Shown: one piece after another, positions 35,165 through 62,632 of the stretch
Layout: each line of letters opens with the position of its first letter
How positions within the stretch are numbered: position 1 is the first letter of the stretch
Assembly: GCA_902795195.1 (NCBI GenBank)
Contig: CADBKF010000008.1
Span: forward strand, 17,677 to 81,676
Direction of reading: 5' to 3'
From: Oscillospiraceae bacterium
Lineage (GTDB): Bacteria > Bacillota > Clostridia > Oscillospirales > Oscillospiraceae
DNA length: 64,000 bases
Notes under the pieces: generated by a model
What the model saw: only the letters and a program-made list of their open reading frames with translations
Database searches by the model: none
Told to the model about the DNA's origin: nothing
Position numbers and translations under genes: made by a program

Positions 35165-36646
35165 ATGAAGGCGTTTATGGATCGAGATTTTTTGCTGCAA
35201 AGCAGCACGGCGCAGCGGCTGTACCACGAGGCCGCAGCCGGCTGCCCCATCATTGACTACCACTGCCACCTGAGCGCGCAGGAGATTTATGAGGACCGGC
35301 GCTTTGAGAACATCACGCAGGTCTGGCTGGGCGGCGACCACTACAAGTGGCGGCTCATGCGGAGCTTCGGCGTCGATGAGCGCAGGATCACCGGCGATAG
35401 CTCCGACCGCGAGAAGTTCCAGGCCTGGGCCGAGACCCTGGCGCTGGCGATCGGCAACCCCCTGTATCACTGGAGCCACCTGGAGCTGCGCAACTATTTC
35501 GGCTTTGAGGGCACGCTGAACGGCGAGACCGCCGAGGCCGTCTGGCAGCTGTGCAACGTGAAGCTGGCCCGGCCCGAGTTCTCCGCCCGGAGCCTGATTC
35601 AGCGCTCGAACGTCGAGGTCATCTGCACGACCGACGACCCGGCGGATTCGCTGGAATGGCACGAGAAGCTCGCCCGAGTCTGTCATTCTGAGCAAAGCGA
35701 AGAATCTCATGCTGAGTCTGGGACAGATTCTTCGGCGCAAGCGCCTCAGAATGACAATGCGGAAGGCTTTTCCGTCAAGGTGCGGCCGAGCTTCCGCCCG
35801 GACAAGGCGATCTGCCTTGAAAAGGCGGACTATGCCGCCTATCTGGAAACGCTCGGCGCTGCAGCCGGCTGCAAGATCGACTCCTTCGCCTCTCTCTGCA
35901 AGGCCCTGGCACAGCGGGCGGACTTCTTTGACCGCCTGGGCTGCCGCGTGTCGGACCACGGCCTGGCGGCGGTGCCCTACGCTGAGGCAGACGCCGACAC
36001 CGTGGAGGCCATCTTCCAAAAGCGCCTGGCAGGCGAGGCCCTGTCCGTACTCGAGCTCGCGCAGTTCAAAACCGCGCTGCTCGTGTTCCTCGGCCGCATC
36101 TACGCCGAGAAAGGCTGGGTCATGCAGCTGCACTTCGGCGTCATCCGCGACAATTCCAAGCGCGTCTTCCGCGCCCTGGGCCCGGACGCCGGCATCGACT
36201 CCATCGGCGACGCGGCCTCGATCCAGGATCTGGCCTGCTTCCTCAACGCGCTCGACGAAACCGATCAGCTGCCCCGGACCATCCTCTACTCCCTGAACCC
36301 CAACGACAACGCGGCGCTGGGCACGGTCATGGGCTGCTTCCAGCAGGGCGGCATCCCCGGCAAGCTGCAGCTCGGCAGCGCCTGGTGGTTCAACGACCAC
36401 CGGCCCGGCATGGAGGCCCAGCTCACCGCGCTGGCAAGCCTCGGCCACCTGGCGACCTTCGTCGGCATGCTGACCGACTCCCGCTCCTTCCTCAGCTACG
36501 CCCGGCACGAATATTTCCGCCGCATCCTCTGCAACCTGCTCGGCACCTGGGTGGAAAACGGCGAATATCCCGCCGACATGGCCGCCCTGACCACGATCGT
36601 GCGCGGCATCTGCCACGACAACGCCGCCCGCTATTTCGCATTCTGA
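35165..36646 (+). CDS. uxaC: glucuronate isomerase carrying an in-frame ~28-codon palindromic-element insertion
   Basis: DYHCHL, GDHYKWR, GNPLYHWSHLELR, MLTDSRSFLSYARHEYFRRILC are all UxaC hallmarks. 493 aa against the ~470 aa I remember for the family. Confidence 0.9.
   Translation: MKAFMDRDFLLQSSTAQRLYHEAAAGCPIIDYHCHLSAQEIYEDRRFENITQVWLGGDHYKWRLMRSFGVDERRITGDSSDREKFQAWAETLALAIGNPLYHWSHLELRNYFGFEGTLNGETAEAVWQLCNVKLARPEFSARSLIQRSNVEVICTTDDPADSLEWHEKLARVCHSEQSEESHAESGTDSSAQAPQNDNAEGFSVKVRPSFRPDKAICLEKADYAAYLETLGAAAGCKIDSFASLCKALAQRADFFDRLGCRVSDHGLAAVPYAEADADTVEAIFQKRLAGEALSVLELAQFKTALLVFLGRIYAEKGWVMQLHFGVIRDNSKRVFRALGPDAGIDSIGDAASIQDLACFLNALDETDQLPRTILYSLNPNDNAALGTVMGCFQQGGIPGKLQLGSAWWFNDHRPGMEAQLTALASLGHLATFVGMLTDSRSFLSYARHEYFRRILCNLLGTWVENGEYPADMAALTTIVRGICHDNAARYFAF
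35682..35755. repeat. nested-palindrome element GTCATTCTGAG...GAAGAATCT / AGATTCTTC...CTCAGAATGAC inside uxaC
   Basis: An 11-bp outer arm pair and a 9-bp inner arm pair, read directly. Translates as CHSEQSEESHAESGTDSSAQAPQND. Confidence 0.85.
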
Positions 36647-36655
36647 ATAAGCGCA

Positions 36656-36690
36656 AAAACGCCCGATTCCGACGAATCGGGCGTTTTTCG
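36656..36690 (+). terminator. rho-independent terminator after uxaC
   Basis: AAAAACGCCCGATTC-CGAC-GAATCGGGCGTTTTT. Confidence 0.8.
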
Positions 36691-39084: not shown

Positions 39085-39088
39085 TTCT

Positions 39089-39166
39089 GTAGGGGGCGGC
39101 GTCCTCGACGCCCCGAATATTCCAGTCTTCTGACAATCGCGGGGCGTCGAGGACGCCGCCCCCTAC
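39089..39166. repeat. nested-palindrome (REP-like) element, copy 1
   Basis: 27-nt arms GTAGGGGGCGGCGTCCTCGACGCCCCG (39089..39115) and the exact reverse complement (39140..39166), with a 24-nt spacer. Each arm contains its own hairpin GGCGTC-CTC-GACGCC. Confidence 0.9.
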
Positions 39167-39186
39167 ACAATCAACGGAGGGAAAAC

Positions 39187-40618: not shown

Positions 40619-40698
40619 CGTAGGGGGCGGCGTCCTCGACGCCCCGAACCTTTCCACATACAAAGACCTGCGGGGCGTCGAGGACGCCGCCCCCTACG
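40619..40698. repeat. nested-palindrome (REP-like) element, copy 2
   Basis: Same 27-nt arms as copy 1, extended by one bp (40619..40646 and 40671..40698), again with a 24-nt spacer of different sequence. Confidence 0.9.
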
Positions 40699-62551: not shown

Positions 62552-62632
62552 CCGTAGTGGCCGATGCCCACATCGGCCATCTCGCCGTAAGGCGCTTCGC
62601 GCTATGGCCGATGTGGGCATCGGCCACTACGG
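62552..62632. repeat. nested-palindrome (REP-like) element between murF and mraY
   Basis: 29-nt arms CCGTAGTGGCCGATGCCCACATCGGCCAT (62552..62580) and the reverse complement (62604..62632), with a 23-nt spacer. Each arm contains the hairpin GGCCGATG-CCCA-CATCGGCC. Confidence 0.9.

Follow-up and report, generated by a model that had tools for sequence, protein, structure and literature searches.

The gene uxaC, which encodes glucuronate (uronate) isomerase in the 64,000-nucleotide stretch of Oscillospiraceae bacterium DNA analysed here (contig CADBKF010000008.1, positions 17,677 to 81,676; hereafter the window), contains 28 extra codons, and we conclude that this segment very probably stems from a small dispersed repeat, hairpin-forming and non-autonomous, one copy of which landed in frame inside the gene. 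We refer to the repeat as the GTCAT element, after the tag at its ends. The host protein matched PF02614 (amidohydrolase-fold triosephosphate isomerase (TIM) barrel) and, in phmmer searches, the Salmonella structure 3IAC (E = 1.2e-168) and the Thermotoga structure 1J5S (E = 1.2e-81), and it keeps the HxH motif, WWFND and the other invariant columns of a 46-sequence alignment. The open reading frame (ORF) is uninterrupted through the element (local translation ...EWHEKLARVCHSEQSEESHAESGTDSSAQAPQNDNAEGFSVKVRPSFRP...), and the phmmer alignments to 3IAC, 1J5S and 2Q01 were split into two blocks precisely at the insert, with residues 171-200 of the window protein opposite only 3 residues of 3IAC. 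Among the best 119 homologues, drawn from 5.8 billion proteins, almost all had no counterpart of the 28-residue segment. The nearest relative, P0002, which is 78% identical outside the insert, has an ordinary turn of 2-3 residues at the site, as most others have; its empty site (locus L006) reads GCC AAG ACC GAC TTC, compared with GCC CGA GTC [TGTCAT...ATGACA] AT GCG GAA GGC TTT in the window. The extra peptide (VCHSEQ...QNDNA) is acidic and Ser-rich with a net charge of about -6 and is predicted to be disordered, and the tryptic peptide of the insert region is VCHSEQSEESHAESGTDSSAQAPQNDNAEGFSVK. An earlier interpretation of this DNA from its letters alone (the sequence-only reading) had estimated about 28 extra residues in an ORF that stays open, the same number as we obtained from the phmmer comparison with the structures and from the homologue alignment. 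The orthologue alignment that it had suggested for delimiting the insert was run and set the boundaries at 35678-35761; it had also named a homologous, non-palindromic segment in close orthologues as the sign of an ancestral loop, and this interpretation fails because P0002 and most others lack the segment.

The inverted-repeat search found outer arms of 12 nt at 35681-35692 (TGTCATTCTGAG) and 35745-35756 (CTCAGAATGACA), which are 100% complementary and 52 nt apart, and inner arms of 10 nt at 35698-35707 (CGAAGAATCT) and 35725-35734 (AGATTCTTCG), which are 100% complementary and 17 nt apart. The nested palindrome described in the sequence-only reading was therefore correct in its arm sequences and coordinates, its 11-nt outer arms (35682-35692 and 35745-35755) falling inside the 12-nt arms. 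The inner arms are the 3' halves of two units lying face to face, and the working unit is each arm as its own hairpin, set as an inverted doublet, not one simple nested palindrome (unit with its tandem G.A, GTCATTCTGAGCGAAGCGAAGAATC; Table 1). Unit 1 has a basal stem of 5 bp, tandem G.A/A.G mismatches and a distal stem of 2 bp with an AAA loop, and unit 2, which shares this basal stem and the tandem G.A, has GGCG/CGCC as its longer distal hairpin. The DNA fold of unit 2 (-5.9 kcal/mol) gave a predicted structure matching the hairpin with tandem G.A exactly. Folded as single-stranded DNA (ssDNA), the 76-nt element had a folding energy of -19.7 kcal/mol for both strands, with z-scores of -4.2 and -4.7, and not one of 200 shuffled sequences folded equally well. 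The unit pattern CATTCTGAGCNNNGCGAAGAATC was expected 0.00 times in the shuffled window, so that a chance origin is excluded, and a relaxed scan of the window for degenerate units left the uxaC pair alone above background. Moreover, G+C content is 0.50 across the insert, compared with about 0.65 in both flanks.

Units of this type are not confined to the window. They follow the formula GTC-ATTCT-GA-[G...C]-GA-AGAAT-C, in which a stem of 5 bp is followed by a 2x2 internal loop, able to form tandem sheared G.A/A.G pairs, and by a distal stem-loop whose length varies; the minimal unit, GAGCGAAGCGAAG, includes a GCGAAGC mini-hairpin. Viral contigs were scanned with the pattern GTCATTCTGAG-N4-30-GAAGAATC, which is looser than the genome pattern, and at least 120 stretches matched. 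Neighbouring units in these viral loci have different stems that are still complementary (ATCCT/AGGAT, ATCCC/GGGAT, ATTCC/GGAAT, ATACT/AGTAT, ATGTT/AACAT and ATTTT/AAAAT), their distal stems covary freely, and the units are very often arranged as convergent pairs about 20 nt apart. Bacterial genomes, one per species, were scanned with a strict doublet pattern (the 25-mer of unit 1 without mismatch, followed by GATYCTTCG at a distance of 10-30 nt), and at least 120 stretches from more than 15 phyla matched; the 25-mer is identical in the uxaC gene of locus L002, in viral contigs and in these genome stretches. The genome matches listed come from Planctomycetota, Bacteroidota, Acidobacteriota, Chloroflexota, Nitrospirota, Verrucomicrobiota, Campylobacterota and Patescibacteria, from Alpha-, Gamma- and Deltaproteobacteria and Coxiellaceae, and from Clostridia, including a goat-caecum metagenome-assembled genome (two contigs), Lachnospiraceae bacterium NC2004 (a rumen isolate), several Oscillospiraceae, one Acutalibacteraceae and an Erysipelotrichaceae; Clostridia bacterium RGIG1738 is named among these clostridial matches. 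Copies in the matched Clostridia lie between ORFs, with up to 6 units in 2 kb (NC2004 has six units over three successive intergenic gaps), and a unit was found deep inside an open frame in only about 3 of the 120 genome loci listed. The suspicion raised from the letters alone, that the arms belong to a widespread intergenic repeat type, is thus borne out: at least 120 genome stretches, spread over many phyla with Clostridia among them, and at least 120 viral ones matched, and the clostridial copies are intergenic.

Family statistics were computed over 107 unique doublets. Conservation ends sharply at T|GTCAT and ATGAC|A, with T at base -1 in 79% and A at base +1 in 87% of the doublets, and there is no base preference at positions -2 to -4 and +2 to +3. 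Doublet length peaks at 70-85 nt with spacers of 12-30 nt, values to which the window copy conforms. Short direct repeats (2-9 bp), as expected of a target-site duplication, were not above chance in the 107 doublets, and none was present at the window copy. The flanks form extra inverted repeats of at least 7 nt in 24 of 107 doublets, compared with 5 of 107 shuffled controls, and the doublets are often nested in larger palindromes. Covariation was read from the end of unit 2 that the search pattern left unconstrained: T..A was found 71 times, C..G 34 times, T..G twice and C..A never, the distal stems covary too, and the tandem GA is retained. The intra-arm hairpin, beyond the terminal inverted repeat alone, is therefore conserved by compensatory changes, including the non-Watson-Crick G.A pairs. 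ORF clustering of 120 viral and 120 genome loci revealed no recurrent neighbouring ORF within 400-500 nt of the units, be it a transposase, a GIY-YIG nuclease or another gene, only clusters of unrelated phage structural or housekeeping genes, and the element is therefore non-autonomous.

Searches of existing resources returned no description of the family. Rfam 15 had no match to the site even when E values up to 10 were allowed, and no family over the doublets of 18 other loci at the gathering threshold; no paper describing GTCAT units was found in the literature, where DNA strings brought up only unrelated primer matches and typical translated peptides nothing; and BLAST of the element, a query too short to be informative, returned one unannotated 29-nt match in the annotated phage collection and none in the annotated plasmid collection. 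A phmmer search with the 34-residue insert region against 1.84 billion representatives found no further host protein, only two ORFs running through tandem unit arrays. Candidate long frames with units in phage and genome loci are mostly without Pfam support on both sides, and in-frame carriage is not established as general; in L208, where units lie upstream of a His_biosynth domain, and in L233, where they lie before Fe-hydrogenase domains, Pfam support does not span both sides. A hammerhead-like reading of CUGAG...CGAAG was ruled out by inspection, the core positions G8/A9 being missing.

Several other copies of the family deserve mention in their own right. Viral contig L111 (3-2810) has a 936-codon frame with a PBECR1 nuclease domain at residues 757-851 and two doublets (units at 376-457 and 1090-1186), and this phage gene may be another in-frame carriage with candidate coding flanks. 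In Deltaproteobacteria bacterium NC_groundwater_1936 more than 20 contigs share one doublet, unchanged in spacer and flanks (loci including L132, L150, L153, L157, L159, L169, L172, L177 and L180), and the flanks form their own terminal inverted repeat (CTGATTAATT...AATTAATCAG), i.e. a larger composite MITE (miniature inverted-repeat transposable element) enclosing the doublet. P0125 (299 amino acids) and P0126 (295 amino acids), which are predicted proteins from public collections, are pure read-through of tandem unit arrays in various frames (CHSERSEESHG, LSFRAQRGIS, VIPSAARNLM) and are probably spurious ORFs.

The gene that carries the window copy appears, from sequence comparison, to be functional. 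The identical 493-residue protein was present on three contigs, and two more strain variants from other assemblies (P0121 and P0122) carry the identical insert. These variants differ from the window at 20 and 25 of 1482 nt, with 16 and 18 synonymous differences and 3 and 4 altered codons, respectively, and the element is free of differences. As the strain changes are mainly synonymous, uxaC is considered to be under purifying selection. In an AlphaFold2 model of the window UxaC, built from the 46-sequence alignment (mean predicted local distance difference test (pLDDT) 85), residues 175-199 have a pLDDT of 29-35 and no secondary structure, compared with 92-95 in the flanks, and the insert is placed between helix 164-174 and strand 205-210, i.e. 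in the alpha2-to-beta3 turn of the TIM barrel. The barrel is intact in the model, with a template modelling (TM) score of 0.94 against 3IAC, normalised to the target. The model shows the 28 extra residues as a disordered, acidic surface loop predicted to leave the enzyme fold untouched, which was consistent with the earlier expectation of a surface loop. The alpha-to-beta turns of TIM barrels form the face opposite the catalytic one, and the modelled insert would lie on that face of UxaC. A second stretch with pLDDT below 50, residues 327-348 (about 36143-36208), lies in the highly conserved segment IRDNSKRVFRALGPDAGIDSIG and is probably a mobile active-site flap, not an insertion.

The turn has been occupied repeatedly. 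We compared about 194 UxaC homologues (about 187 clusters) collected by a first search that gave 120 proteins and a second search seeded with the empty allele P0037, from which the best 200 were taken, and all internal insertions of at least 4 residues follow reference residue 170/171, i.e. they occur in this loop. The loop holds four palindromic insert types and one uncharacterised 5-residue insert in related rumen Clostridia (Table 1). The spacer of the doublet, which is the variable part of the family, is not conserved among the window, L002 and L251. In a neighbour-joining tree made without the insert columns, the window protein (P0001) was sister to the empty allele P0002, the other filled alleles fell in a second clade with the empty alleles P0037 and P0050, and P0145 was closest to P0004 (86%). 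Since filled alleles are scattered among empty ones on the tree, at least three to four separate events are needed. The alignments show the alpha2-beta3 turn to be a putative insertion hotspot or else the sole site where selection would tolerate inserts. The empty site reads CTTGCAGGGGCAGCC, which resembles a repetitive extragenic palindromic (REP) sequence head and is weakly self-complementary; the DNA at the loop may attract palindromic elements, or the turn may be the only permissive place in UxaC.

Table 1. Features of the window uxaC gene and of the inserts occupying the same loop in related genes.
Feature	Location	Strand	Evidence or remarks
uxaC (glucuronate/uronate isomerase) coding sequence, 493 amino acids, insertion host	35165..36646	+	ORF list, PF02614, phmmer, AlphaFold2
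Extra segment, 84 nt = 28 codons V172-A199, encodes VCHSEQSEESHAESGTDSSAQAPQNDNA	35678..35761	+	alignments of 120, later 200 sequences; codon comparison with L006/P0002
Whole palindromic element, REPIN-like inverted doublet T|GTCAT...ATGAC|A, 76 nt	35681..35756	.	inverted repeat, ssDNA fold, family match
Unit 1, GTC-ATTCT-GA-GCAAAGC-GA-AGAAT-C	35682..35706	+	pattern match and fold
Spacer between units, 19 nt	35707..35725	.	spacer lengths of 107 doublets, 12-30 nt
Unit 2, GTC-ATTCT-GA-GGCGCTTGCGCC-GA-AGAAT-C	35726..35755	-	pattern match and DNA fold
Inner-arm span of nested palindrome	35698..35734	.	inverted repeat
GTCAT doublet, lineage 1	window uxaC (P0001)		
GTCAT doublet, lineage 2	P0004 (L002)		identical 25-mer as unit 1; long-loop ATCCT/AGGAT unit as unit 2
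GTCAT doublet, lineage 3	P0145 (L251)		units ATTCC/GGAAT and ATTGC/GCAAT
GTAG-tagged REP unit GTAGGGGCGGCCATTGGCCGCCC	L002 insert, 5' part, adjoining doublet		
Compact hairpin pair	P0112/P0027 (L004/L005)		contains the L002 REP unit in opposite orientation
Different hairpin-containing insert	P0006/P0038 (L003)		
5-residue insert	P0138		
GTAG REP unit copies	L002 9864-9984, 10520-10542; L003 7338-7360; L004 10533-10555; L247 1348-1370		

The REP unit of the L002 insert recurs about 650 nt upstream in L002 and also in L003 and L247. The GTAG REP unit GTAGGGGCG(R)(Y)CATTG(R)(Y)CGCCC was observed in both orientations on contigs of related rumen Clostridia, where it lies in intergenic gaps as well as within the uxaC loop, and the gap between Lar_N and uxaC is 133-154 nt filled with REP-type repeats in L002 and L247 and 1-2 nt in L248. 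In L251 (1600-1780) the P0145 uxaC allele is split near its 3' end (RHEHPL* versus RHEYFRRIL...), with the remainder in another frame, which is either a frameshift pseudogene or a sequencing error. Downstream of the window uxaC, 9 nt after the stop, a perfect 15-bp hairpin flanked by A5 and T5 (AAAAACGCCCGATTCCGACGAATCGGGCGTTTTT, 36655-36688) looks like a bidirectional intrinsic terminator.

Small palindromes in frame inside genes are known from the Rickettsia palindromic elements (RPEs; Ogata et al. 2000, 2002), which the accounts in PMC10969869 and PMC3733652 give as about 100-150 bp long, in about ten families, and characteristic of Rickettsia. Like the RPEs of these accounts, the window element is a small palindromic dispersed repeat lying in frame in a gene that is open, conserved and still looks functional, with its peptide where the fold tolerates it, and both are regarded as selfish DNA without a transposase of their own. 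Compared by description only, the GTCAT element differs in being 76 nt long, built of two tandem-G.A units, spread over more than 15 phyla and phage contigs, and mostly intergenic; because of this length and the pan-bacterial family, membership among the RPEs is unlikely. The sequence-only reading had cited in-frame palindromes as established for Rickettsia, and this part stands; they are not unique to that genus, as GTAG/CGTC REPs occur inside ORFs of several non-Rickettsia species, and two species of Xanthomonas carry different REPs at about the same recB site (PMC3733652, Di Nocera et al. 2013). It had further stated no awareness of a clostridial case, and we likewise found none described for Clostridia in the literature.

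In architecture the element resembles REPs and the composite forms termed bacterial interspersed mosaic elements (BIMEs) and REP doublets forming hairpins (REPINs), which are mobilised by REP-associated tyrosine transposases (RAYTs) (Bertels & Rainey, PMC3116915; PMC3733652). Shared features are an imperfect palindrome of 20-40 nt with a short conserved tag at one foot, the pairing of units into inverted doublets that have a spacer of varying length and are able to form a longer hairpin, the lack of target duplications, and, for GTCAT units among the loci listed, mostly extragenic copies that occasionally lie in frame in ORFs. Indeed, the window units of 25 and 30 nt fold as predicted for REP hairpins, and they form a doublet of one + unit and one - unit with a 19-nt spacer; the 107 unique convergent doublets elsewhere have spacers of 12-30 nt. 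However, the element has the tag (T)GTCAT in place of GTAG or CGTC (T precedes GTC in 79% and C in only 16%, 17/107), and the stem always has the tandem G.A/A.G mismatch. Further, the GTCAT unit is near-constant across phyla, whereas REPs co-diverge with their RAYT in each lineage, and a weak search of 2.16 Mb of unit-bearing loci found no RAYT beside any GTCAT copy. True GTAG-type doublets coexist in the window at 39088-39167, 40619-40698 and 62552-62632, each about 80 nt long and REPIN-like inverted (for example TGTAGGGGGCGGCGTCCTCGACGCCCCG..24 nt..CGGGGCGTCGAGGACGCCGCCCCCTACA); the first two have 28-nt arms in common and differ in their spacers, and each arm of the third has its own 9-bp hairpin. 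The first two of these GTAG doublets separate consecutive genes of one strand (FGGY kinase, isomerase-like gene, class II aldolase).

With bacterial MITEs (ERIC, Correia/NEMIS, RUP, and QMITE1/2 of Coxiella; PMC10969869, PMC5896051, PMC2759123) the element shares size range, terminal inverted repeats (here 12 nt and perfect), a hairpin predicted to be strong, the lack of a transposase-coding part, and now and then an in-frame fusion to a host ORF. Classical MITEs have flanking target-site duplications made by DDE transposases, whereas GTCAT doublets had 0 of 107 above expectation, and identity with a classical MITE was rejected on the lack of such a duplication. A small form of QMITE2 is described as REP-like and as occurring also outside Coxiella (PMC5896051), and is likened to the GTCAT element by description only.

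As to the origin of the insert, the element is a 76-nt REPIN/BIME-like doublet made of two inverted units of 25-30 nt and a 19-nt spacer, and with about 8 nt of junction sequence of no assigned origin it lengthens uxaC by exactly 84 nt and leaves the frame intact. By inspection, the family is open in two of three reading frames, and the third reads TGA. The element would have survived in uxaC because its length is a multiple of three, two frames are free of stops, and the turn is permissive. Its movement may occur in trans as ssDNA, with the hairpin recognised by an enzyme, given that target-site duplications are missing, the intra-arm hairpin is kept by compensatory changes, and copies are often nested in palindromes. 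The known enzymes with such properties are HUH/Y1 transposases of the IS200/RAYT kind, and an enzyme of this type is our best guess for the mobilising activity. For the host, the insert would be selfish or neutral and not beneficial. On a broader scale, it is conceivable, if doubtful, that GTCAT tandem-G.A doublets represent an undescribed class of mobile hairpin elements across bacteria and phages, whose near-invariant core would be recognised as ssDNA or RNA by a widespread enzyme, that GTCAT and GTAG elements would prefer structure-prone DNA, and that the uxaC turn would be a true integration hotspot.

Several points weigh against the insertion of a dispersed repeat at this site. No second copy of the unit exists within the 64-kb window; the 76-nt palindrome explains all but about 8 of the 84 added nt, which leaves a junction remainder; tblastn with approximate IS200 TnpA and E. 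coli RAYT queries, a weak search, found no Y1/RAYT homologue either in the window or in the 2.16 Mb of unit-bearing loci; a unit nearly identical across phyla does not resemble classical REPIN-RAYT systems, which diverge by lineage; and translation and enzyme activity of the insert-bearing UxaC are presumed. In addition, the window and L251 share the junction GTC|TGTCAT...ATGACA|AT, so that arrival by recombination with another uxaC allele is possible. Under this last alternative, which we consider rather unlikely, the window copy would not be an insertion of its own: the doublet would have entered the loop once in the P0004/P0145 lineage and spread by homologous recombination among co-resident rumen Clostridia, or an ancient insert would have been precisely lost many times. 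The shared junction triplets are non-native and lie at positions that the family leaves unbiased, orientation and reading frame are equal in the window, L002 and L251, and codons about 131-172 (35555-35680), just upstream of the insert, are closer at the nucleotide level to the clade-B alleles (80-86%) than to P0002 (71-79%), which reverses most other regions. However, this sliding-window signal is only about 2 standard deviations on 90 nt, the coincidence of frame is weak evidence because only two of three frames are open, and unit 2 and the spacer are wholly different among the window, L002 and L251. Moreover, P0001 is sister to the empty P0002 amid many empty alleles, and an ancient origin would require many precise losses because P0001 is nested among them.

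It is improbable that the palindrome has been retained for a function in uxaC, whether as an mRNA hairpin modulating translation or stability, as a protein-binding tandem-G.A RNA motif or as a functional acidic loop, which would make it an exapted element. Three strain variants with 1.3-1.7% difference elsewhere have the same insert, yet 0 changes in 76 nt fits 1.5% divergence, under which about 1 is expected. The loop is filled in most close clade-B members, whereas the inserts are unrelated in sequence and length (5-50 amino acids) and absent from many close relatives, so that no common function is evident. GTAG-type doublets of the window sit between operon genes, where REPs affect mRNA (PMC3733652), but the RNA fold of the insert in its mRNA context had a z-score of only -1.9, and the AlphaFold2 loop is disordered and far from the catalytic face. 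We regard as very improbable an ancestral or lineage-specific expansion of the UxaC loop that became palindromic by chance or by local template switching and is no dispersed repeat. The single copy in the 64-kb window and the unexplained junction of about 8 nt would agree with it, but the nearest orthologue and most homologues lack the segment, copies with the same 25 nt as unit 1 exist in many unrelated genomes and in phage contigs, the element conforms to the family in its ends, length, spacer and build of two units, and the insert is 15 points lower in G+C. That one sequence contaminating public assemblies gave rise to the outside matches was excluded by their differing flanks, spacers and covarying stems. 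Finally, a chimeric join inside uxaC, produced in assembly or binning, is scarcely credible: the DNA does come from a metagenome assembly, and mis-assembly can result from palindromes, but the protein occurs on three contigs, two allelic variants from other samples and assemblies have the identical insert in diverged genes, the frame is exactly kept, and related inserts appear in independent studies.

In-frame palindromic repeats are already known (RPEs and GTAG/CGTC REPs), and what is new here is the repeat family, the host group and the repeatedly struck loop. In-frame selfish palindromes, known mainly from Rickettsia and a few REP cases, now extend to rumen Clostridia, with a GTCAT family that differs from the earlier in-frame cases by its tag and its distinctive tandem-G.A hairpin. 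That the unit is nearly identical in phages and across more than 15 phyla points to a recognition system. For annotation, the units generate spurious ORFs and odd insertions (CHSERSEES, SFRAQRGIS, VIPSAARNL). Further, the uxaC loop constitutes a natural experiment, in which one short turn of a well-characterised enzyme has been occupied repeatedly and filled and empty alleles both exist. It makes testable whether the elements choose their target or selection filters random insertions, and the uxaC alleles allow the effect of a disordered loop of 28-50 residues on a TIM-barrel enzyme to be tested.

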